The notes under the pieces were generated by a model. That model made no database searches. It was not told the DNA's origin and was given only the letters and a program-made list of their open reading frames with translations. Of a DNA stretch of 64,000 nucleotides, positions 899-62,631 are shown one piece after another; the stretch's first letter is position 1, and the number at the start of each line of letters is the position of its first letter. This stretch comes from Candidatus Komeilibacteria bacterium RIFOXYD1_FULL_37_29 (GTDB lineage Bacteria; Patescibacteriota; Patescibacteriia; UBA1558; GWA2-36-10), in contig MHKS01000004.1 in NCBI GenBank assembly GCA_001818495.1, positions 84,657 through 148,656 of the forward strand. The letters are read 5' to 3'. A program made the translations under genes and the position numbers.

Positions 899-3800
899 AT
901 GGAATTTAAAAAACATAAATTAATCAGCCGCTTCCCTTATTTGGCGACCATTTTTAGCTTGCTGATGTTTTTGCCAAATAGGGTTTTGGCAGTGGACCCA
1001 TTTACTAGATTGATTGGCGACGCGATTTGGAGCTTTTTTGTCTATCCGATGATTTGGGCCTTACAACTAGAATTGGCCATATTGAAGTTAGTAGCCAGAT
1101 ACAATAATTTTACCAATGAAGGTGGAGTAATCTTGGGTTGGATAGCGCTACGCGATCTTTCCAATATGTTTTTTATTCTGATACTTTTGGTGATTGCTTT
1201 TGCCACAATACTTAGAATTTCCAGTTATGGTTATCAGCAACTATTAAAGCGCACACTGATTATTGCTATTTTGATAAACTTTTCCAAAACCATCGTTGGT
1301 TTTGTGATTGATATCGCTCAGATTGTTATGTTGACTTTTATCTCAGCGGTAGACGATATATTGACCGGCGGAGTAGTAGTGGCTATCGGACTTCAAAAAT
1401 TTACCACCATTAATATTTTGGGTGATGGCATGGATTATGCTGATTATATTACCTCTTTGGTCATGGGGGCTCTACTAGTGGCTATACTTTTAGTAGTTAT
1501 TGGTATTATGGTGATGATGCTGACGATGAGAATTATAGCTTTATGGGTAGCGATTATTTTAGCACCGCTAGCTTTTGTGGCTAGTATTTTTCCAGCCACC
1601 AACAGCTTTTATAACACCTGGATAAAGCAACTGGGTAGCAATTTGGTCTCTGGGCCGATGCTGGCGTTTTTTCTGTGGCTGACCTTTTCTATTGTGGGAA
1701 ATGGAGAGGCATATAAAAGTTTTATGGAATCGGGCACCACTCCGGGGGATGGAGCTACAGAATTTTTGGGTACTAGTAATTTGGTAAATTATATAGTAGC
1801 CATTTCTTTGCTACTGACGGGTATTAAAATAGCGGCTAGTTCGGGAGCCGCTGGAGCCAGTTTTGCGGCCAAAGGCATGGGACTGATGCAAAAAACAGCC
1901 GGTAAACTTTATAGGCGTTATCCAAAAGCCCTGGGTATGAGAGTAGCTTCTGGTGTAGCTGGTCGAGTTGTTGATAAGGATGGTAATTTGAGAACAGGTT
2001 TCAAGACGCTAGGTAAAATACCTTTTTATGGCGGTCGCTTACAAAGAGGAGCTATGAACGTTAAAGGTAGAAATGCTGCTAGAATAATGGAGGAAAAAGC
2101 TGAAGACGAAAAATATCTTTTGCCACAGCACAAGGTGGTCTATGAAAAAACCTATGGAGCGGGAGCTAGTAGTAAATTTAAAGTAGGAAAAATACCTTTG
2201 GGTAAAATATATTCCAAGGTGGGTTCTTGGGGAGGTGACAAGGAAAGAGAAGCTATGATGTATCAGAATATGTTGGCTCGCGGCGAAATTAATGTTGGCA
2301 ATGCCGATAAAGCCACCAACGCCTTGCGTGATCTTGGTGATGAAGCTGGTATGCAAAAAATACAATCCCAATATTGGACCTTTAAAGATAAGGCAGAAGC
2401 CAAACGTTTGATAGAAAAGGGAGGATTGGGGACTGTATTGGATAGTGTAAAAACAGATAATCTTAGAGAAAAGGTTATAGATCCAAAAACAGGCAAGGTC
2501 GAAATGGAAAAATATATAGACCCAGCAACCGGTGAAACCAAGGAAAGAGAAAAAATTCGAGTAAAAGAGTCTACCCAATATGCTTTGGAAGCCATTGCTA
2601 ATCCGGAGCATGGACAGGCAGATCACAATACTATAGCCAAGTATATTTTGAAGTGGAGCAAAGAAGACAGGGGTACTTTGATGACTATTGTTAAAGATAG
2701 TTTTGATTTTGCTAAGCATTTTACAGGAGAAACGTTGGATTCAAAAGATGGTTATCAGCCAGACAAAAGAAACTTTATTCCATCTAGGTTATCAAACGAA
2801 GCTGTGATGTGGGCTCAGGTGACAGGAAAGATTTACCCTCAAATGTTGGGGGATGAGTTTGGTGATGATGGTAAATTGAAGCTATTTGGTGCAGATAGGT
2901 ATTATCATGCAGCTGGTTACCGAGATTTAAAAGAGTCGTATGTAGTACCTGGCCAAATAGCTAGTAGATTGCAACAACAACACGGAGAAACCAATGTTCA
3001 ATTTAAGAAAAGAAAGCAACATGCTGAAGCCCTTGATGTTGTAAAATTAGACGATGCCAGCACCTTACATCAAGCATTGCGAGGACGTTATGTGACTAAA
3101 GATGCGAGTGGTAAAGATGTCATTGATAAAGAGAAATTCGTTGAATATAGGCAAAAGATGTATAGGCAGATATTGAATTTAGATGCTTATACAGAAAATT
3201 TACAAGGTAAGAAGCGATCTGATTTTCACAATAATGATCATATCTATAATAATAATTTAACCATTGCTGAACAAGCAGAGCAATTGGCTAGAAAATATGT
3301 AGCTCCAGAAACAGCTCGCGGAGATTTAATAATTCAAAAAGACAATCCGGCCAAAGAAGGAGAACCAGATTATGAAGTTAGGAAATTACATAGAGGTAAT
3401 TTTGCTACTCAAACAGCTTATGCTGATTATCTTGATAATTTGCAAAGAGCTACCAGAGAAATAGAGAAAATATTGGCTATTAAAATGGAAGATGTTGATA
3501 AAGATTTTGATGATAAATTTGGTGAAGGTGCTTTTGAAAGAGAAAAAAGAAGGATGGTAGCAGAAGTGGTTGATGATAAGCGAACAGCTCATGATTTAGT
3601 ATCCAAGAGTATCTGGGGAGAAGTTCAAGATGGAGCGCCTGGGGAAAGACTGGCAGAAGTAAATACTGGTAATATTCATGAAGCAGTTATGCTTGATCAT
3701 GCTCTTGATTCATCTGAAAATCAGCAACAAGCTCAAGCATTTAAAGTAACTACCCCTGAGCAGACGCAATATATAGTAGATAAACTAGCCGAGCTTGGTA

Positions 3801-20706: not shown

Positions 20707-21447
20707 TTAATTATTTTTGGCTAAGACTAGGCAAATTATATTGGAATAATTATTTTTCGTCAATACTTTGGCGGCTTGATTTAAAGTAGCCCCAGTTGAG
20801 GTGACATCATCGATTAGTAGGATTTGGGAGCAGTGCCGCATTTGTAGTGGCACTGTTTTTTGGTTTATTTCAAAAATATCTAAGACATTTTTTTGCCGAG
20901 CGATTTTATTTAATTTTGCTTGTGGTGGATTATTTTTGGTTCTGATTAAAAGAGGAGAGTAAGGCCGATTTAATCGCTTGGCTAATTTTTTAGCCAACAG
21001 CTCTGTCTGGTCAAAACCACGTTTTCTTTTTTTGTTTTGATGGAGTGGTATATTGACTATGATGGTATCTTTTCCCAAGGCCAAGTGTCGAGCTTGCTTT
21101 TCCAGTATATCTATCAGTGGTTCAGCCATGTTTTCCAAATAATTGTATTTATAGTTTTTTATTAATTTTTGGACGAGCTGGTTTTGGTAATCACAAGAAG
21201 AGTAGCAGGCTTTAAAATAGGTTTTTTCTTGGTCTGGCCAGTAAATGGCTTTTGGCTCGCTTAAGATAATATCATTTAAACAAAAACCACAGCAGAGTGA
21301 TCCTTCACTGTGACAGCCCAGGCAAAATTGTGGCCAAATAAAATCTAAGAGTATTTTAAAAACCTTTTTAATGTAAAATAAAAAGGTTTTTACATCGCTT
21401 TTTCCCGCGTACCGGGATCCCGCTTCGCGGGGCTTCCTTCCTATCAT
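20707..21447 (-). CDS. comF: ComF family competence protein (phosphoribosyltransferase-fold, N-terminal zinc ribbon)
   Basis: Double zinc-ribbon CLGC...CCGFC followed by the PRTase motif LLIDDVTSTGATL. Confidence 0.8.
   Translation of the reverse strand: MIGRKPREAGSRYAGKSDVKTFLFYIKKVFKILLDFIWPQFCLGCHSEGSLCCGFCLNDIILSEPKAIYWPDQEKTYFKACYSSCDYQNQLVQKLIKNYKYNYLENMAEPLIDILEKQARHLALGKDTIIVNIPLHQNKKRKRGFDQTELLAKKLAKRLNRPYSPLLIRTKNNPPQAKLNKIARQKNVLDIFEINQKTVPLQMRHCSQILLIDDVTSTGATLNQAAKVLTKNNYSNIICLVLAKNN
21404..21431. repeat. G+C-rich near-perfect palindrome CCCGCG-TAC-CGGGATCCCG-CTT-CGCGGG inside the comF 5' coding end
   Basis: Read directly from the sequence. It encodes the first residues of ComF, 6-40 nt downstream of the clpC stop. 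An A/T-rich 9-bp hairpin flanks it at 21362..21390. Confidence 0.5.
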
Positions 21448-37004: not shown

Positions 37005-38057
37005 ATGTCGGATGCTTTAATTATAAATGATATATTAAATGCGGCGGCCGAAAGAAAGGCTACTGATGTTCATCTGGTAGCTGGAAATAATCCAGTTATT
37101 CGGGTAGACGGTCGTTTGACCACTTTGGTTGATCAGCCAGTTTTGACTGGAGATATATTGATGGCTTTGGCTCAGTCATTTTTAAGTAAAGAATATTTTG
37201 ACAAGCTTAGTGTTGAAAAAGAAATAGTAGCTATTTATAATTGGGCCGGGCGCAGTCGTTATCGAGCCAAGGTATTTTATCAAAAAGGTTTTTTGGCTAT
37301 TTCTCTTCGTTTGTTGTCACCCTTTATTAGGTCACCCAAAGATTTGGGTATACCAGCTGCTATTTTACAGCTTTTAAATAAAGATCGCGGTATCATCATC
37401 ATCACTGGCCCTTTTGCCAGTGGGCGTACTTCTACCGCCGTATCATTGGTAGAAACACTCAATCAAAATAAAGGTTTGCATATACAGACTTTGGAAAATC
37501 CAGTCGAATATCTATTTTCCAATAATCAATCGGTGATTGAACAGCGCAACATTGGTTTGGATGTTAATAATTTTGTAGATGGTTTGAAAAATATGCTGGA
37601 CGAGGATATTGATGCTGTGTTTGTTGATTCCATGCATGAAAAGGGAGCGGAAGAAGTCATTTTAGAGTTGGCAGAAAGTGGCAAATTGATCATTTTTGTC
37701 ATGGATGCCGACACAGTAATTTCGGCTTTGGATAGATTTATTAACAATATTTCCACTAATCGTCGAGATTGGGGTAGAGAAACATTGGCTGATGTTTTGT
37801 TGGGGGTTATGGCGCAGCGTCTGATACCCCGAGTGGGTGGGGGACTTACTATGGCCTCAGAAGTTTTGATTAGCAACTCAGCTGTGCGTAGTTCTATTAA
37901 AAGTGACAAGCTTTCCCAGCTGGGTAGTATTATGCAGACCTCTCGGGAAGAGGGTATGTCTTCTTTGGACAAGTCTTTGTTAGAATTAATTAGAATTGGA
38001 GAAATTAGTTTAAGCGACGGGAAAAATCATGCGGTTGATCCGCAGAGTTTGAGATAA
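37005..38057 (+). CDS. pilT: PilT-like protein with degenerate ATPase motifs (predicted catalytically inactive)
   Basis: Colinear with PilT. Walker A reads GPFASGRTS (Lys replaced by Arg). The Asp box reads LENPVEY, Walker B reads DAVFVDSMHE (no catalytic Glu), and the His box is replaced by VMDADTV. Confidence 0.65.
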   Translation: MSDALIINDILNAAAERKATDVHLVAGNNPVIRVDGRLTTLVDQPVLTGDILMALAQSFLSKEYFDKLSVEKEIVAIYNWAGRSRYRAKVFYQKGFLAISLRLLSPFIRSPKDLGIPAAILQLLNKDRGIIIITGPFASGRTSTAVSLVETLNQNKGLHIQTLENPVEYLFSNNQSVIEQRNIGLDVNNFVDGLKNMLDEDIDAVFVDSMHEKGAEEVILELAESGKLIIFVMDADTVISALDRFINNISTNRRDWGRETLADVLLGVMAQRLIPRVGGGLTMASEVLISNSAVRSSIKSDKLSQLGSIMQTSREEGMSSLDKSLLELIRIGEISLSDGKNHAVDPQSLR

Positions 38058-38063
38058 TAATTT

Positions 38064-39272
38064 ATGCCAATATATAAATATAGAGCCAGGACCAAAGACG
38101 GCCGCATTATCAAAGGAGCGGTTGAAGCAGTGATGGAAGATGATGCCCTAGACCTTTTAAGTGAAAAAGGTTTGATTATTGTAGATTTGTTGGAGACAAA
38201 ACAAAAGAAGGTTCGACGTTTTAATATTAATGTTGGTACAATTAAGCATAAAGATTTGGTAATTTTTTCCCGTCAGCTGTCAGTCATGATTTCAGCTACT
38301 GTGCCCATAGTGCAGGCCTTAAAAATTTTGGCTCAGCAGACTACCAATCCAATGTTTGTGGATAAAATAATAGAAATGTCCAATGATATTGACGGCGGTA
38401 TGCGGTTTTCTGGTGCTTTATCTAAGCATGATAAAATTTTCAGCAATTTCTATGTGGCCATGGTCAAAAGCGGTGAAACCTCTGGTAAATTGGATGAGAT
38501 ACTCCAATATTTAGCTGATCAGATGGAAAAGGATTATGACTTGGTATCACGCATCAAAGGCGCTATGATTTATCCCATTTTTATTATTTCCGGTATGGTG
38601 GTGGTCGGTTTTTTGATGATGACCTTTGTAGTACCGCAGATGGTAAAAATGCTGGAAGAAACGGGAGCGGAATTACCGTTTTTGACTAGACTTTTGGTTT
38701 CAGTCTCGAGTTTTATGAACCAGTATTGGTATTTGATAGTTTTGGGAGTAGTGGTCGCTATAGTAATTTTGCGTTGGTGGATAAAATCCAAGCCGGGTAA
38801 AGTAACTTGGGATGCTATAAAGATCAGAATACCAATTTTTGGAGGGTTATTTAAGAAAATTTATATAGTACGTTTTACTCGCTCTTTTGCCACCTTGATT
38901 AAAGGTGGTGTGCCGATTGCTTCAGCTTTGGCTATTACCGCCGAGGTGGTAGATAACCGCGCTTATGAAAAACTCATCTTAGAAACAGTAGATGAAGTAG
39001 AGGGGGGTAATTCGGTGGCTACTTTGTTTTCCAATTCAGACATCATGCCCAAGATGCTTTCTCAGATGATGGTCATTGGAGAAAAAACTGGTCGCTTGGA
39101 TGATGTTTTGGAGCGTTTGAGTAATTTTTATAGCCGCGAAATAGACAACTTGGTTGGCAGTTTGACTTCTTTGATTGAACCTTTGATTTTGATTGTCATG
39201 GGTGTAGGTGTCGGTGGTATGGTTGCGGCTATTATGTTGCCGATGTTTAAGGTAGCCCAGTCTATTGGTTAG
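38064..39272 (+). CDS. pilC: Type IV pilus platform protein PilC (GspF family)
   Basis: Two GspF repeats, three TM segments, 402 aa. Confidence 0.9.
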   Translation: MPIYKYRARTKDGRIIKGAVEAVMEDDALDLLSEKGLIIVDLLETKQKKVRRFNINVGTIKHKDLVIFSRQLSVMISATVPIVQALKILAQQTTNPMFVDKIIEMSNDIDGGMRFSGALSKHDKIFSNFYVAMVKSGETSGKLDEILQYLADQMEKDYDLVSRIKGAMIYPIFIISGMVVVGFLMMTFVVPQMVKMLEETGAELPFLTRLLVSVSSFMNQYWYLIVLGVVVAIVILRWWIKSKPGKVTWDAIKIRIPIFGGLFKKIYIVRFTRSFATLIKGGVPIASALAITAEVVDNRAYEKLILETVDEVEGGNSVATLFSNSDIMPKMLSQMMVIGEKTGRLDDVLERLSNFYSREIDNLVGSLTSLIEPLILIVMGVGVGGMVAAIMLPMFKVAQSIG

Positions 39273-39292
39273 TTTTATTAGTGGAAAAATTG

Positions 39293-39321
39293 TTGTTGAA
39301 AAATTAAAAAAATGGTATAAT
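39293..39321 (+). promoter_or_regulatory. pilA promoter TTGTTG-17-TGgTATAAT (extended -10) with ~140 nt leader
   Basis: Read directly from the sequence. The RBS GAGAGGAGG precedes the pilA ATG. Confidence 0.4.
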
Positions 39322-39463
39322 GAAAATGTTCTTTATTTTTTAATAATACATTAAATAATTAATAAGGCTTTGGCATATTCTACTGTGGCTATTAAAACCT
39401 CAGGGATCTCAGGCTTTAATTAGCCGATAGAATTGCTAAAGTGAGAGGAGGTGAAAAGAAAAA

Positions 39464-39925
39464 ATGAAAAATAAAAAAGGTTTTACTTTAGTTGAGCTAT
39501 TGGTAGTTATTGCCATCATTGGTATATTGTCTACAGTAGCTATAGTAAACTTAAATTCCGCTCGTGATAAAGCTAGAGCAGCCAGTGTGCAGTCTGCCAT
39601 GAGTCAATTAACTAGTGCCGCCATACTTTGTCATGATGACCTTCAAAATTTAACTGAAAATGGTGCTCTCGTAGCGCCGGTAGTTTGTACTGGTGCCGCT
39701 GGTGATCAGCCAGTAGAGAATACTACAGTTTGTGAGCAGGATTATACTGACGCAACTTGGCCAGACCTTCCAGTTGGTTGGATTTATGAGGACAATTGTG
39801 CTTCTGATTATACAGCTAGCACTTGGTCCTTTACTGCTTGTGAAGGTACCCTTGTAACTTGTACGGCTGGTGGTAGAACAGTTACCTGTTCTAATACCGG
39901 ATGTACATCTGGAATTACTCCTTAA
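39464..39925 (+). CDS. pilA: Major type IV pilin (class III signal peptide)
   Basis: MKNKKG|FTLVELLVVIAIIGIL with Glu at +5 and a C-terminal Cys-rich globular part. Strong promoter, RBS and terminator. Confidence 0.85.
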   Translation: MKNKKGFTLVELLVVIAIIGILSTVAIVNLNSARDKARAASVQSAMSQLTSAAILCHDDLQNLTENGALVAPVVCTGAAGDQPVENTTVCEQDYTDATWPDLPVGWIYEDNCASDYTASTWSFTACEGTLVTCTAGGRTVTCSNTGCTSGITP

Positions 39926-39952
39926 TGCTTAACTCAATTTTAATTTAAAAAG

Positions 39953-39974
39953 CCCTCTGGTAGGGGGTTTTTTA
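39953..39974 (+). terminator. Intrinsic terminator after pilA
   Basis: CCCTC/GGGGG stem with a T run. Confidence 0.5.
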
Positions 39975-40008
39975 AATTTGTGTTATAATTTAATTAGCTT
40001 AAAAATCA

Positions 40009-40446
40009 ATGTTTAATTATTCTATCAAAATAAAGATATTTTTAATTGGTCTACTCATCATATCCATAGTAGTTTTGATTTTTTTGATTAGTATAAATAA
40101 AAGTCGGGGACGCGACCTTTATCGAGTTTCTCAGGCCAAAGTTTTGGCCACCAGCTTGGAGCGCTATTTTGACAAAAATTATGCTTATCCAGAGCTGGTC
40201 CAAACCAATATCACAGCTATTAAGATAGTGACAGAAAAAGGAGTCAATCAAGTCGGCGACTATCTCTATTTTCAAGGTCCGGCCAAGCTGTTAGAGGAAG
40301 GCACTTTAGTCAGCTCTCCTAGTCGTTATGTTATTGAGTTTACTCTAGAAAATTCTTGGGATTTATGGGGTATTAGCAGCAGTGCTGGAGGGACTTGTCG
40401 TATTTCCAACTATTTACAAATGGTTTGTCGTTCCCAGGATTCCTAA
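40009..40446 (+). CDS. Hypothetical membrane-anchored protein
   Basis: N-terminal TM and no prepilin cleavage motif. Confidence 0.4.
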   Translation: MFNYSIKIKIFLIGLLIISIVVLIFLISINKSRGRDLYRVSQAKVLATSLERYFDKNYAYPELVQTNITAIKIVTEKGVNQVGDYLYFQGPAKLLEEGTLVSSPSRYVIEFTLENSWDLWGISSSAGGTCRISNYLQMVCRSQDS

Positions 40447-40486
40447 ATAGCCAAATTATCTTAAAATATGCTATAATAAAGCTACT

Positions 40487-41266
40487 ATGACAGTAGCTTT
40501 TGTCTTTATTTTGGGACTTTTTATTGGTAGCTTCTTAAATGTAGTGATTTTACGGTTGCGACGACAAGAATCTTTTATCAAAGGGTCATCTAAATGCCTT
40601 TTTTGTCAGCATCGCTTATATCCCAAAGATCTCATACCATTATTTAGCTATTTGTTTTTAAAAGGGCGGTGTCGTTATTGTCAAAAAAGATTTTCCCATC
40701 AATATCCGTTAGTAGAATTTTTTACTGGTTTCTCTTTTGTTTTAATTTTTCAAAAAATAGTACCGAGTGCTGATTGGAATTTGATTTCTTCTTTACAGGT
40801 TTTACATTTATTGGATTGGTGGGTTATTGTTTCTTTTTTGGTTATTATTTTTGTTTACGACTTCAAATATTATTTGATATTGGATAGAGTGGTTTGGCCG
40901 ATTATTATTTTGTCATTTTTGGTCAATTTGTTTTTAGGTTTTTCTATCTTTAATCTGGTTTTTGCCGCAGTGATTGGCGGAGGATTTTTTTTCCTGCAAT
41001 TTATAGTCTCAAAGGGTCGTTGGATTGGTGGTGGGGACATACGTTTGGGACTACTAATGGGGGTTATTTTGGGCTGGCCACATGTTTTGACCGCTTTATT
41101 TATTTCCTATGTTTTGGGTAGTGCGGTTGGTGTGTCTTTATTGTGGAGCAAACGTAAGGATTGGGGCGACAAAATACCCTTTGGCACATTTTTGACCATT
41201 GGCACTTTTATGACTATGCTCTGGGGGCCTGCTTTGGTTAAGTGGTATTTGTCTTTATTTTATTAA
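40487..41266 (+). CDS. pilD: Prepilin peptidase PilD (A24 family)
   Basis: N-terminal CxxC...CxxC zinc motif (CLFCQH...CRYCQ) and a polytopic membrane domain. Confidence 0.85.
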   Translation: MTVAFVFILGLFIGSFLNVVILRLRRQESFIKGSSKCLFCQHRLYPKDLIPLFSYLFLKGRCRYCQKRFSHQYPLVEFFTGFSFVLIFQKIVPSADWNLISSLQVLHLLDWWVIVSFLVIIFVYDFKYYLILDRVVWPIIILSFLVNLFLGFSIFNLVFAAVIGGGFFFLQFIVSKGRWIGGGDIRLGLLMGVILGWPHVLTALFISYVLGSAVGVSLLWSKRKDWGDKIPFGTFLTIGTFMTMLWGPALVKWYLSLFY

Positions 41267-41297
41267 ATATATTATTAATTATTATTAATCTAAACAT

Positions 41298-42509
41298 ATG
41301 TTTAAAAAGATTTTTTACAACAAGGGCGGCTTTACTTTTTTGGAGCTGATGATAGTCATTGCCGTTACGGTGATTATCACTTCGGTGTTTGTGGTGAGCA
41401 CCAGAGAAACGGTTAGAGATCAAGTAGACACTTCTACCAATCAATTGCTCTCTGATATTCGTTATGCTAGAGGGCTGGCCACCTCTCGAGTGACTTATAA
41501 TTTTGGTGGTGCCCTTGGTACTGTTTATCCGCCCGGGGGCTATGGTGTACATTTTACGGACGGAGATTATAGGTATACTGTCTTTGCCGACAATGGTTCT
41601 GGTGGTGGTTTTAGCCTGCTGGCTGGAGATAAGATTATTAAAACCGGTACCCTAAAAAATACCTCTTTGGATTTGGAAGATTATAATCAAACTGTCGCTC
41701 TTGCCAAATATTTTACTTTTCAGGCAGAAAATGAAGTAGTAACCAATTTCGTCTCTGATAGTCAGGGTAAATACAAAATGTCCGTTACGTATAACCCAGG
41801 AACGGGCGGAGAGGGCTATCGTGGTATCATTACCTTGGGCGAGCAAGCGGCTGATGGTAGTGTTTTTGTCAGTTTAGGGATTGGCTCTATTGGTTATACT
41901 CCAACTTGTAGTACTCAAAATCAGGCCTGTGACGGTTCTCAACCTTGTTGTTTTGGTCAAGGGACTTGTACCGCTAGTATTTGTACAATACCGCCAACCA
42001 ATCCACCTCAAACCAGCTGTTTTCCAGCCGGAACAACAGTACTAATGGCTGATTATTCTTATAAAAATATTGAAAGTATTCAGGTTGGTGATTATGTTGT
42101 TAGCTACGATGAAGTTTCACAAAAAGAAGTAGCCGCTAAAGTTTTAGAGCTGGCTTCTCCAGTCAGAGAGCATATGTGTGAACTTATTTTTGTTGATGCT
42201 AGTTTAAAACTAACTGATGAACACCCAGTCTATACTCAAGCTGGTTGGAAATCTATCAATCCAGAAAAAACTATTGCGGAAAATGATGAAGTAGTAGTGA
42301 CTCAACTTACTTTAGGAGATCAGATTTTCTTTAGAGAGGCTGTTTATAAGGAGTTGATCAAAATTAATTGTTGGCAGGAAGAGATCCAGACTTATAATTT
42401 GAAAGAAGTAGAAAATTATAATACCTTTTTTGCTGACGATGTTTTGGTCCACAATGCTTCAGCTCCTAGCTGCGGTGGTAGCACAGATCCAGTCGGGGGT
42501 ATTTTTTAA
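41298..42509 (+). CDS. Pilin-like protein (class III signal peptide) with Cys-rich linker and C-terminal Hint / bacterial intein-like domain
   Basis: The leader is MFKKIFYNKGG|FTFLELMIVIAV with Glu at +5. The residues ~241-386 region is described under the separate feature 42018..42455. Confidence 0.7.
   Translation: MFKKIFYNKGGFTFLELMIVIAVTVIITSVFVVSTRETVRDQVDTSTNQLLSDIRYARGLATSRVTYNFGGALGTVYPPGGYGVHFTDGDYRYTVFADNGSGGGFSLLAGDKIIKTGTLKNTSLDLEDYNQTVALAKYFTFQAENEVVTNFVSDSQGKYKMSVTYNPGTGGEGYRGIITLGEQAADGSVFVSLGIGSIGYTPTCSTQNQACDGSQPCCFGQGTCTASICTIPPTNPPQTSCFPAGTTVLMADYSYKNIESIQVGDYVVSYDEVSQKEVAAKVLELASPVREHMCELIFVDASLKLTDEHPVYTQAGWKSINPEKTIAENDEVVVTQLTLGDQIFFREAVYKELIKINCWQEEIQTYNLKEVENYNTFFADDVLVHNASAPSCGGSTDPVGGIF
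42018..42455 (+). other. Hint / BIL (bacterial intein-like) domain within the pilin-like gene
   Basis: Codon TGT at 42018 encodes the first Cys and AAT at 42453 the terminal Asn. Block A reads C-FPAGTTVLMADYS, block B reads TDEHPVYT, and block G reads NTFFADDVLVHN. The domain is 146 aa and contains no homing-endonuclease insert. The +1 residue is Ala, not C/S/T, so canonical splicing is unlikely and a BIL-type or cleaving Hint is more likely. Confidence 0.6.
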
Positions 42510-42528
42510 GCTTTTTTAACAATTTTTT

Positions 42529-43233
42529 GTGCTAGCTACTAAAGACAATATAAAATTTACCCCTCGCTACTTGGCTCGACCAAGTAGCGAGGGGTTTACT
42601 TTGATAGAAACTTTGATATCTATTGTTGTTTTTACCATTGGAATTTTTGCCGCTTTGGGGCTATCCGTTTCCAATTATAATGATTCGCAAAATAATTTGG
42701 ACAGGATTATTGCTACTAATTTAGCTAGAGAAGGCGTAGAATTGGTTAAAAATGTTCGAGATAGCAATTGGTTAAAAATAGAGGCCAATGATACAGCTGG
42801 TTGTGGTGGCAGTTCTTGTACCTGGAATTATGCGTTAAATGGCCTGACTGATTATGTGGTCATGAGTTATGCTTCTACTACACCAAATTTTTTACCAGCT
42901 TGCGCACTTGGTATTGTAGAGTGTATCAAAAATAATGCCAGCACTCAATTGTCTATCAATGCCACAAATTATTATGTCCACGGCAATAACAATACCACTA
43001 AATATTCTCGGGCTATAAAATTAGAAAAAATATGTTTGGAATCAGAAGGTGAAATTCCCATAAATTCTCCGAATCCGCAAAATTTTGAATACCTCAGGAG
43101 TATGAGTCAAGATTGCAATGTCAGTGTCGGCGATACGCAGATTGGCCTCAAATTGACAGCGCATGTCCAATGGGAAGATGGTAGCACCAAATATATTGAA
43201 ATAGTAGACTCAATTTATAATTGGCGAAGATGA
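42529..43233 (+). CDS. Minor pilin / pseudopilin (class III signal)
   Basis: ...SSEG|FTLIETLISIVVFTIGIF with Glu at +5. The ORF-track GTG start gives a 22-aa leader; a TTG at 42571 would give a typical 8-aa leader. Confidence 0.6.
   Translation: MLATKDNIKFTPRYLARPSSEGFTLIETLISIVVFTIGIFAALGLSVSNYNDSQNNLDRIIATNLAREGVELVKNVRDSNWLKIEANDTAGCGGSSCTWNYALNGLTDYVVMSYASTTPNFLPACALGIVECIKNNASTQLSINATNYYVHGNNNTTKYSRAIKLEKICLESEGEIPINSPNPQNFEYLRSMSQDCNVSVGDTQIGLKLTAHVQWEDGSTKYIEIVDSIYNWRR
42559..42595 (+). promoter_or_regulatory. Perfect 16-bp hairpin (ACCCCTCGCTACTTGG-ctcga-CCAAGTAGCGAGGGGT) overlapping the start of the next pilin gene
   Basis: Read directly from the sequence. It is followed by a T-rich stretch. 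It encodes the leader peptide residues of the 42529 gene and contains an alternative TTG start (42571). Confidence 0.5.
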
Positions 43234-43889
43234 TATTTAAGCAATTGATAAAAAATAAACAGGGTTTTACTTTGGTCGAGCTTTTACTAGCCACCTTTAT
43301 TTTTACTTTGATGGTTTTTGCTGTATCGGGAGTCTATATTGCTTTTAATAAGAGCCAAATTCGAACCAATTCTAGTCAGCAATTATTAAATGATAGTCAA
43401 TACGCTTTAGAAGTTATTGCCAAAGAGATTAGAAACAACACTATTATAGATTATTCACCAACTACTGTTGACTGTGGTGCTTTAATTAAGACTGGCACTG
43501 GTACTGATAATTTTGATCAGTGTATTATTTTGGAAAGATCCAATGGCCAAACGGTAGCTTTTGCTCGACATAGCTTTATAGCTACTCCGGGCAGTTTAAG
43601 GTTATATTATCTTTTATTAGATTGTGATCAATTTTATTCATCTTGTACCAACATTAACATTAATTCATCAGCCGCTACAGCTATTTTGTCCCCGGAGGTT
43701 AACAATATAAATTTATCAGCTTTAAATTTTAATATTTTACCCAGCACCAATCCTTATATCACTGGTGGACCAAATCAGCAACCCCGAGTGACTATTAATA
43801 TGAACACAGCCTATATCAGCGCTGATCCGGTAAAAAATGTAGATCATACTTTTCAAACCACTGTGTCTTCACGAGTGTATAAGCGTTAG
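43221..43889 (+). CDS. Minor pilin / pseudopilin (class III signal)
   Basis: MAKMIFKQLIKNKQG|FTLVELLLATFIF with Glu at +5. Overlaps the previous gene by 13 nt. Confidence 0.7.
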   Translation: MAKMIFKQLIKNKQGFTLVELLLATFIFTLMVFAVSGVYIAFNKSQIRTNSSQQLLNDSQYALEVIAKEIRNNTIIDYSPTTVDCGALIKTGTGTDNFDQCIILERSNGQTVAFARHSFIATPGSLRLYYLLLDCDQFYSSCTNININSSAATAILSPEVNNINLSALNFNILPSTNPYITGGPNQQPRVTINMNTAYISADPVKNVDHTFQTTVSSRVYKR

Positions 43890-43914
43890 GATTTGACGAT
43901 TACCAAGGAATCAT

Positions 43915-46816
<2,902 letters not shown>

Positions 46817-46863
46817 TATAAATTGTTGCGTAATATTCCGATATTAGTTAAAATTAGTTTAAT

Positions 46864-47151
46864 ATGAAGTTTGATAAAAAAGAGGTACTACATTTGGCCA
46901 AATTAGCCAAATTGAATATCAAAGATGAAGAAGTGGAATCTTACAATCATGAGTTGCAAGCTATTTTAAATTATATAGAAAATATCAATAGTTTAAATTT
47001 GGATCAAGTTACAGAAAGTCTTCGTGGTATTGAAGGAGAGGGCGTTGGTCCTAGACCAGATAGCATTTCTCCATCTACTCCGCAGATTATTGGAGACGCT
47101 GGCCAAAAGGATGGTCAATATGTGGCCACACCGCAGGTTTTTAATAAATAA
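46864..47151 (+). CDS. gatC: Asp/Glu-tRNA amidotransferase subunit C
   Basis: 95 aa with the GatC pattern VLHLAKLAKLNIKDEE...NYI. Confidence 0.8.
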   Translation: MKFDKKEVLHLAKLAKLNIKDEEVESYNHELQAILNYIENINSLNLDQVTESLRGIEGEGVGPRPDSISPSTPQIIGDAGQKDGQYVATPQVFNK

Positions 47152-62528: not shown

Positions 62529-62631
62529 TAAATTTAAATTATATAGGTTAATGTTTAGGTCACTATTTTAATTTCACGCGAATTTCGGCGAAGCCGAGAG
62601 CAGGGAAATTAAAATAGTGACAGTAATAAAT

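Follow-up and report, generated by a model that had tools for sequence, protein, structure and literature searches.

The hairpin and its place in the pilus gene cluster

The window analysed here, a 64-kb stretch of DNA that makes up a quarter of its source contig, comes from Candidatus Komeilibacteria, a lineage within the candidate phyla radiation (CPR), and carries a type IV pilus gene cluster. A perfect hairpin lies inside the 5' end of one of its minor pilin genes, close behind the gene for a minor pilin with a Hint (Hedgehog/intein-like) domain, here called the Hint-pilin. As argued below, this hairpin most likely tunes expression between the neighbouring pilus genes. Its parts are as follows:

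42559-42574, + strand: 5' arm ACCCCTCGCTACTTGG, codons Thr-Pro-Arg-Tyr-Leu-Ala
42575-42579, + strand: loop CTCGA, 5 nt
42580-42595, + strand: 3' arm CCAAGTAGCGAGGGGT, its last four nt being the Gly(-1) codon and the T that opens the Phe(+1) codon

The arms are complementary at 16/16 positions, ten of the pairs being G-C, and the stem has a stability of about -30 kcal/mol. The perfect inverted repeat at 42559-42595 with its 5-nt loop had been described in a first-pass annotation of the sequence, whose coordinates were all correct, as was its remark that the hairpin stands out in AT-rich surroundings (G+C content of 62% in the arms vs about 36% locally). A 141-nt stretch containing the hairpin folds at -44.5 kcal/mol (z = -7.6), a value equalled by 0/200 dinucleotide shuffles, and the longest perfect stem with a loop of 3-12 nt in 60 first-order Markov surrogates of the window was 13 bp, vs the 16 bp observed. 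The hairpin is beyond chance. No second copy of an arm was found within the window with up to three mismatches permitted, nor any further copy among the perfect hairpins of at least 12 bp in 638 kb of related loci.

The pilus cluster around the hairpin was delimited from the open reading frame (ORF) list and Pfam matches. All of its genes are on the + strand, in the order PilT-like ATPase, PilC, major pilin, small membrane protein, pilD, Hint-pilin, three minor pilins and ligA; the pilus operon with the hairpin comprises orf145, pilD, the Hint-pilin gene and the three minor pilin genes. The features needed for the argument are these:

39464-39925, + strand: major pilin gene, with a canonical terminator next to it
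39942-39978, 3' of the major pilin gene: canonical intrinsic terminator, G+C-rich stem and U tract
41298-42509, + strand: Hint-pilin gene, TAA stop at 42507-42509
42529-43233, + strand: minor pilin gene with the hairpin, GTG start in the ORF list
43221-43889, + strand: next minor pilin gene, overlapping the preceding gene at 43221-43233
43915-44799, + strand: PilX-like gene, followed by ligA after a 16-nt gap

The Hint-pilin gene and the hairpin-bearing gene are separated by 19 nt on the same strand, and the hairpin does lie close behind the Hint-pilin stop, as first described, with a gap of 49 nt from 42509. It is located within the ORF of the minor pilin and not in an intergenic spacer. The protein encoded by this ORF matches PF07963 (25.7 bits), has an N_methyl motif at residues 20-43 and the features of a type IV prepilin (class III signal peptide), with the motif G/FTLIE, where the slash separates leader from mature pilin. 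The motif is invariant among orthologs and comprises Gly(-1), a hydrophobic N-terminus and Glu5. A protein 100% identical to the hairpin-bearing minor pilin was found by protein search in RIFOXYC1_FULL_37_11 (Candidatus Komeilibacteria).

Conservation of the helix and the Hint domain

The minor pilin and the Hint-pilin served as queries in protein searches, and the contigs encoding the matches were retrieved. This gave a set of nine loci, composed of the window and eight relatives (L001, L002, L003, L006, L093, L094, L095 and L096). The relatives have the same gene order and an upstream pilin with a Hint domain, and their Hint-pilins are 49-79% identical to that of the window; the downstream minor pilin and the PilX-like gene are syntenic in all related loci. 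A metagenome scan for close relatives added none with the hairpin except a duplicate of L006. Absence of the hairpin from orthologs had been named in the first-pass annotation as the observation that would count against the element. It was found to be kept in 8/8 related loci, with compensatory changes: a hairpin of 12-16 bp is present at the same site in each, with differing arm sequences, as the following 5' arms illustrate:

L001: CCTCGCTGCCGA
L002: CCTCGTTGCTGG
L003: CCTCGCTACTTTG
L006: TCCAGCATCATTT
L093 and L095: CCCCACTACTCT
L094: CCCACTACTTTT

The nine loci align without gaps from 14 nt 5' to 17 nt 3' of the stem, in identical register. Over the 16 pairs and nine sequences, 91.7% of cells hold standard pairs, a share that drops to 43-55% once the partners are shifted by 1-3 columns. 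Changes on both sides were found in 12/16 pairs, 0/500 shuffles matched the observed covariation, and the same helix was recovered independently by RNAalifold. Among the interior cells that are not Watson-Crick pairs, ten are U·G and two are others. Since a U·G pair would become an A·C mismatch in an antisense RNA and a mismatch in DNA, the hairpin is best interpreted as belonging to the sense mRNA. On this comparative evidence it is a sense-RNA helix selected for pairing, with neither its sequence nor the encoded peptide conserved. The loop ranges from 3 to 9 nt and is conserved among orthologs neither in sequence nor in length, and an Rfam 15 search of 41000-44000 gave best matches of 17-20 bits against gathering thresholds of 39-100 (E >= 0.5). 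The varying loops and the lack of an Rfam match favour a generic, physical role over a site for specific binding.

A site acting at the DNA level, such as a cruciform or hairpin for a recombinase, an origin or a nicking site, is very improbable. A perfect palindrome does adjoin a gene with a mobile-looking Hint module. However, what is conserved is the pairing and not the sequence, the G·U cells would not pair in DNA, no hairpin of this kind follows other genes that carry this Hint module, and no rearranged copies were seen in related loci.

The hairpin was then set against the Hint domain within the clade of these loci, as delimited in a tree built from four concatenated neighbouring proteins (bootstrap 1.0). 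Within it, the hairpin is present in 9/9 loci whose upstream pilin bears a Hint domain and in 0/5 loci whose upstream pilin lacks one. Three of the five Hint-less loci (L005, L091 and L092) have kept the long leader and lost the pairing; in L092 a 6-bp remnant resembles the L006 stem and is read in another frame. This decay of pairing in the sister clade suggests relaxed selection after loss of the Hint domain. A strict coupling between Hint and hairpin was rejected, as the tree requires only one gain and one loss, and outside the clade the link fails in both directions: in the more distant L015 a Hint-pilin occurs together with a short leader and without the hairpin, and L016 carries a hairpin in the absence of a Hint domain. 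The L015 arrangement is found at 1916-3525, where the Hint domain is 45% identical and the orthologous minor pilin, with leader MKIDNKKG/F, follows 8 nt later.

The possibility that the hairpin is part of a mobile Hint cassette was also discarded, given that Hint modules 57-60% identical occur in other surface proteins with no hairpin downstream. These related modules were found in otherwise unrelated CPR surface proteins, at L097 2185-2631 and L099 1169-1618; one host protein has a C-terminal membrane anchor, and the other has a PilX-like N-terminus, fn3 and a large C-terminal domain, and lies beside pilM. In the window, the Hint-pilin matches Hint/Vint/PT-HINT and N_methyl in Pfam, its Hint domain spans about 42006-42467, and the insertion point is 17 residues ahead of the pilin C-terminus. 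The C-terminal tail motif is common to the Hint-pilin and to Hint-less orthologs of about 233 aa: the tail keeps their Asp-Pro-Val motif, and the residue following the His-Asn end is Ala. The pilin Hint domain thus looks like a mobile intein-like insertion, predicted from its insertion site, the Asp-Pro-Val of the tail and the Ala after His-Asn to cleave but not to splice.

Leader peptide, start codon and origin of the 39-nt addition

Three features of the leader region bear on how the hairpin-bearing gene is translated and how the hairpin arose:

42529-42594, + strand: leader coding region, 22 codons, with the Gly(-1) codon GGG at 42592-42594
42553-42561, + strand: AAA TTT ACC (Lys-Phe-Thr), directly 5' of the GC core of the stem
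42571-42573, + strand: TTG proposed as start codon, paired in the stem (P(unpaired) <= 0.001) and rejected here

Translation from GTG 42529 gives the 22-aa leader MLATKDNIKFTPRYLARPSSEG/FTLIE, of which the hairpin encodes residues 11-22; that it codes for leader residues of the next pilin had been correctly pointed out. An in-frame walk upstream found a GTG 63-69 nt 5' of the Gly(-1) codon in 9/9 loci. The leader counted from this conserved GTG has 22 aa, or 24 aa in L095 and L096, and its N-terminus, ML.NK (Met-Leu-x-Asn-Lys), is conserved in orthologs, including relatives that have no hairpin. The start-to-stem distance is 31 nt in the window and 31-41 nt across loci.

The first-pass annotation had also proposed TTG 42571 as a start that would give an 8-aa leader, with the hairpin possibly hiding this codon, a reading that can hardly be correct. 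Both TTG 42571, which lies in the hairpin and would give MARPSSEG/F, and GTG 42529 are indeed in frame with G/FTLIE, and L003 and L006 share an in-frame GTG or TTG near the loop. Nevertheless, such a start exists within the hairpin in only three of the nine loci (the window, L003 and L006), being absent from the other six, and the TTG codon is fully paired inside the stem. Relatives that lack the hairpin still have the upstream GTG and the ML.NK N-terminus. Occlusion of the start is not the mechanism, because TTG 42571 is unsupported and the real start lies 31 nt ahead of the stem, outside the footprint of an initiating ribosome. By this comparison, the GTG and its 22-aa leader settle the start-codon question for this gene family.

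The GTG has no Shine-Dalgarno sequence in any of the nine loci. This is unremarkable, since most genes of the window are also without one. Among 12 gene starts inspected at 37005-46864, a strong Shine-Dalgarno sequence was seen only in the major pilin gene (GAGAGGAGGTG), and in several genes a TATAAT-like box lies no more than 20 nt from the start codon, an arrangement suggestive of 5' leaders that are very short or missing.

Several other roles for the 5' end of the gene were considered and rejected. Sequestration of a Shine-Dalgarno sequence would require the GAGGGG of the 3' arm to serve TTG 42601, a Leu codon that is TTA in L002 and L093-L096, and 6/9 arms have no GAGG. The heptamer AAATTTA directly ahead of the stem resembles a -1 frameshift signal, but its frame does not fit, no spacer separates it from the stem, and L001 and L003 have not kept it. 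A fusion between the Hint-pilin and the next pilin, or read-through from one into the other, is incompatible with their frames, which differ in the window and agree only in L003. Finally, ATATAAAAT could be the -10 box of an internal promoter placing the hairpin at the 5' end of a transcript, but such a transcript would have no start codon in 6/9 loci, and the motif is limited to the four closest sequences.

A clue to the origin of the hairpin comes from the closest ortholog with a short leader, that of L004 (VSSNKNNQG/FTLIE), which is exactly 39 nt (13 codons) shorter. From this comparison, the hairpin corresponds to 39 nt added in frame, by which a leader of about 9 residues grew to 22. In the window, TTTAC occurs on both flanks of the stem, as Lys-Phe-Thr before the GC core and Gly-Phe-Thr after it. 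Lys-Phe-Thr may possibly be a relic of ancestral (Gly)-Phe-Thr codons duplicated with the addition of the palindrome.

A scan of every prepilin motif in 76 species-level loci turned up very few further stems with their end at the Gly(-1) codon. One of 9 bp, in the L016 ortholog of the gene, has an arm clearly related to that of L006 (CCAGCACCA vs CCAGCATCA). In L053 (Uhrbacteria), a pilin paralog carries a perfect 20-bp hairpin ending on the Gly(-1) codon (L053 1028-1070), with the leader MSRLRKGFT-PHQFWTKSKTGAG/FTLIE. There, the gene starts 5 nt past the stop of the preceding pilin gene, the hairpin lies about 30 nt past that stop, and the stem is flanked by GGTTTCACC and GGTTTACC, which are duplicated Gly-Phe-Thr codons. 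Alignment of this pilin (C) with its upstream paralog (B) shows a 39-nt gap and a 3-nt gap, 42 nt in all. Judging from these two lineages, the leader-hairpin architecture has arisen at least twice.

Two known systems share features with the hairpin or its leader. Rickettsia palindromic elements and repeats resembling miniature inverted-repeat transposable elements are 100-150 bp long, sit in-frame in genes and occur in many copies per genome. The hairpin is like them in being a palindromic in-frame addition, present in some orthologs and absent from others, that is tolerated by the protein and possibly accompanied by duplication of its flank. The duplication is clear in L053, whereas the window shows only TTTAC on both sides and Lys-Phe-Thr. 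Unlike those elements, the hairpin is 39 nt long, is single-copy in the sequence examined, where multiple copies would be expected of such a repeat, and has its pairing kept by compensatory change. Type IVb prepilins, for their part, have long leaders (more than 20 residues) with Gly(-1) at the end, and a hydrophobic N-terminus with Glu5. The present leader shares its length, Gly(-1) and Glu5 with them, but its extra length is a recent addition to a short type IVa-like leader, with residues dictated by the RNA stem.

An insertion of this kind need not have a function. The palindrome could be a selfish or accidental in-frame insertion at GGN-TTT-AC, tolerated as leaders are cleaved off and kept by template switching rather than by selection. 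The exact 39-nt difference from L004, the duplicated flanks in L053, the unconserved peptide (L006 and L092 translate the same nucleotides in different frames) and the loss of the hairpin by decay in the sister clade all agree with this, and template switching is documented to homogenise the arms of inverted repeats (PMC7202029, PMC8604942). We nonetheless regard this explanation as distinctly unlikely. The hairpin is single-copy in the window and in the 638 kb of related loci, and its stems still measure 12-16 bp in 9/9 loci where the protein identity of the neighbouring gene falls to about 49%. Moreover, the imperfections are biased to U·G, with roughly seven events vs one A·C, where a process acting on DNA predicts no bias, and no spacer inversion, the hallmark of template switching, was seen among the aligned loops inspected.

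A more general proposal, quite improbable as a whole, is that the CPR harbour a class of palindromic in-frame insertions of roughly 40 nt at the Gly-Phe-Thr codons that prepilins universally conserve, which would duplicate these codons, lengthen a short leader and, through a ribosome-sensitive stem, tie transcription or stability of the downstream pilus mRNA to translation of the leader. Such insertions would have occurred independently in the Komeilibacteria minor pilin and the Uhrbacteria paralog, with retention in Komeilibacteria only where the upstream pilin has a self-processing Hint domain.

Termination, mRNA decay and other proposed roles of the stem-loop

The stem is followed by a T-rich run that had been taken as evidence of a terminator:

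42595-42609, + strand: TTT ACT TTG ATA GAA, encoding Phe-Thr-Leu-Ile-Glu, the N-terminus of the mature pilin

The segment TTTACTTTG corresponds to the Phe-Thr-Leu codons, and TTTACTTT follows the Gly codon in all four pilin genes of the window and in most pilin genes of related loci. Preferred codons in pilin genes are of the same type (ACT for 50-59% of Thr and TTR for about 70% of Leu), and selection for U-rich synonymous codons 3' of the stem was rejected, as it is indistinguishable from this usual codon choice. The mature pilins of L093-L096 begin with Tyr instead, and the run there has changed to TATACTTTA. The tail directly after the stem reads UUUACUUUG in the window, UAUACUUUA in L093-L096 and UUUACCCUC in L053. 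The signature reported for strong terminators, GC(U)7RU, with GC at -11/-10 and RU at -2/-1 (preprint 10.64898/2026.05.29.728758), was matched by none of these tails; the stem ends in GG(U), and no phasing fits.

A stable G+C-rich hairpin is present, as in an intrinsic terminator, while an uninterrupted U tract of about 7 nt is not. Like the canonical terminator at 39942-39978, the hairpin has a G+C-rich stem 3' of a pilin gene. It differs from it in a stem twice as long, a tail that is interrupted (UUUACUUUG and UAUACUUUA), its position inside the next ORF and the lack of GC(U)7RU. Because the T-run is a coding by-product, is degraded in four orthologs and does not fit the signature, the hairpin is at best a weak or partial terminator. 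Of the original suggestion that it terminates or attenuates transcription between the two pilin genes, a role between two cistrons remains plausible, while its terminator part is reduced to weak termination within an ORF. More generally, a T-rich run after a hairpin at the 5' end of a pilin gene should be treated as a coding artefact.

Termination could still be conditional on translation. In attenuation of the pyrBI type, translation through a terminator stem prevents the terminator from acting. Similarly, the hairpin and UUUACUUUG might terminate transcription after the Hint-pilin gene unless a close-following ribosome from GTG 42529 keeps the 5' arm unpaired. In agreement with this, the hairpin scored as terminator-like in a simple scan, its 5' flank being rich in A and its 3' flank in T, a hit that deserves little weight. 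In the window, L001-L003, L006 and L053 the stem directly adjoins UUU, in exact register, the ORF is open through the hairpin in 9/9 loci from a start 30-40 nt upstream, and the genome does employ canonical terminators such as that at 39942-39978. The geometry also matches that of the Streptococcus gallolyticus pil1 leader, where a translated ORF crosses a proven terminator stem-loop and a start placed upstream in this way was shown to suppress the terminator (PMC3894217). As in pil1 and pyrBI, the ORF runs through a stem-loop that could terminate, and its translation would prevent the stem from forming; unlike the dedicated regulatory peptide upstream of the pil1 operon, however, the peptide here is the leader of a structural pilin in mid-operon, and the U tract is poor. 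We consider such an attenuator unlikely. Against it are the ordinary codon choice in the T-run, with no extra selection detectable, the altered tails of L093-L096 and L053 and the unmatched signature. The stems of 12-20 bp also exceed the canonical terminator stems of these genomes, and an efficient terminator would cut off ligA as well, 16 nt past the pilus genes.

The favoured reading, to which we assign a probability of roughly 0.45, is that of a step-down element inside the operon: the stem-loop would lower expression after the Hint-pilin gene by acting as a barrier to mRNA decay, with or without partial termination. Operon-internal protective 3' structures causing differential mRNA decay are known from the malE-malF structure, and Dar and Sorek 2018 (PMC5927463) mapped a set of them in E. 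coli; they often lie inside the downstream ORF and require no U tract. The hairpin fits this class best, because it is a paired sense helix with no sequence-specific features, at a cistron boundary and inside the downstream ORF. Its structure is conserved in nine loci. Under this proposal, endonucleolytic cleavage would occur further downstream, and the stem (-18 to -31 kcal/mol) would then stop 3'->5' exonucleases, so that the mRNA up to and including the Hint-pilin gene would outlive the downstream minor-pilin segment. The cistrons stepped down would be the downstream minor pilin (43221-43889) and the PilX-like gene (43915-44799). In the lineage of the window, where UUUACUUUG follows the stem, a fraction of transcripts may also terminate. 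Ribosomes from the GTG would read through and open the stem, leaving the element to act mainly on poorly translated copies, and the stem might also slow early elongation on the downstream pilin.

Protective 3' structures (PMC5927463) and the hairpin have in common a stable stem-loop at a cistron boundary, conserved among relatives and lacking a proper U tract, and an effect, predicted in the present case, in which the upstream gene exceeds the downstream genes in level. The differences are that the stem here is only 31-67 nt into the ORF, in a leader that is cleaved off, that it is a perfect 12-16 bp helix resembling a discrete 39-nt insertion, and that the host is a CPR bacterium whose RNases are uncharacterised. 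An RNase III site needs about two helical turns (around 20 bp) of uninterrupted double-stranded RNA, and the stems of 12-16 bp, or 20 bp in L053, are at the low end.

The step-down reading is supported by the decay of the pairing in L005, L091 and L092, where the element would be unneeded, and by the independent recurrence of a leader hairpin in L053, with a 9-bp version in L016. Another Uhrbacteria pilus operon, L051, has hairpins of 16-28 bp without a U tract at four places:

L051 694-736, 1304-1366, 2153-2211 and 5153-5220: two cistron junctions, the junction of pilD and the next pilin, and a site just after the last pilus gene

These junction hairpins are consistent with the protective-structure reading. 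Their arms are composed of tandem heptamer repeats, e.g. (CAGCTTC)4 vs (GAAGCTG)4, and (CCCAAAT)n.

Other points weigh against a step-down role. If a fragment ended at the hairpin, it would contain the GTG and 22 codons but lack a stop codon, at the cost of non-stop translation, and every ribosome translating the downstream pilin would open the stem. The exact abutment of the stem to UUU or UAU in all loci could mean termination or, equally, an origin by insertion. Template switching in replication can keep DNA palindromes perfect without selection (PMC7202029, PMC8604942), and the association of hairpin and Hint domain is, on the tree, a correlation at the level of the clade rather than a demonstrated functional coupling.

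The stem could also act purely as a translational brake, stalling the first ribosomes 31-41 nt past the start and so limiting initiation on the minor pilin and the overlapping next gene, with the upstream mRNA unaffected. The constant start-to-stem distance (31-41 nt), just past the initiation footprint, the weak GTG without a Shine-Dalgarno sequence in all loci and the overlap of the next gene with the 3' end (43221-43233) would suit such a brake. It is improbable as the sole function, however, given that elongating ribosomes unwind stems of this kind efficiently and that lower expression is achievable without a perfect 16-bp stem, while the recurrence in L053 after a preceding pilin and the junction hairpins of L051 point to a role at cistron boundaries.

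Taken as a step-down element, the hairpin most probably belongs to a known class, that of operon-internal stem-loops, as a new member with an unusual anatomy, inside a prepilin leader as a 39-nt in-frame addition. Literature searches on Hint-domain pilins and on prepilin-leader hairpins returned nothing relevant. Of the cis-acting RNA structures in CPR type IV pilus operons, the element may be the first conserved one to be described, nothing comparable having come up in these searches. Pili are thought to attach the ultrasmall CPR episymbionts to their hosts, and the hairpin would offer a handle on the relative dosage of the Hint-domain pilin vs the other minor pilins. It would also indicate that, in a compact genome, a regulatory stem-loop can be placed in the disposable signal peptide of the next gene and not in an intergenic spacer.

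Further structured elements were seen in the related loci and in the window. In L096, a perfect 16-bp hairpin at 1185-1221 begins 1 nt past a TATAAT box, behind the major-pilin terminator, and would probably form a stem-loop at the very 5' end of the next transcript; in L095 the corresponding site (about 1120-1230) holds a structured leader that is longer. Elsewhere in the window, a perfect 17-nt inverted repeat (GTCACTATTTTAATTTC and GAAATTAAAATAGTGAC, 29-nt spacing) is found at 62559-62621, and a perfect 14-bp A+T-rich palindrome (TAAAAACCTTTTTA and TAAAAAGGTTTTTA, 8-nt spacer) at 21357-21392 may be a bidirectional terminator.

Many contigs with a CPR-type pilus cluster are titled "uncultured Gammaproteobacteria bacterium" in public records (L011, L014, L015, L018, L023 and others), which is probably a taxonomic mislabel of Patescibacteria bins.

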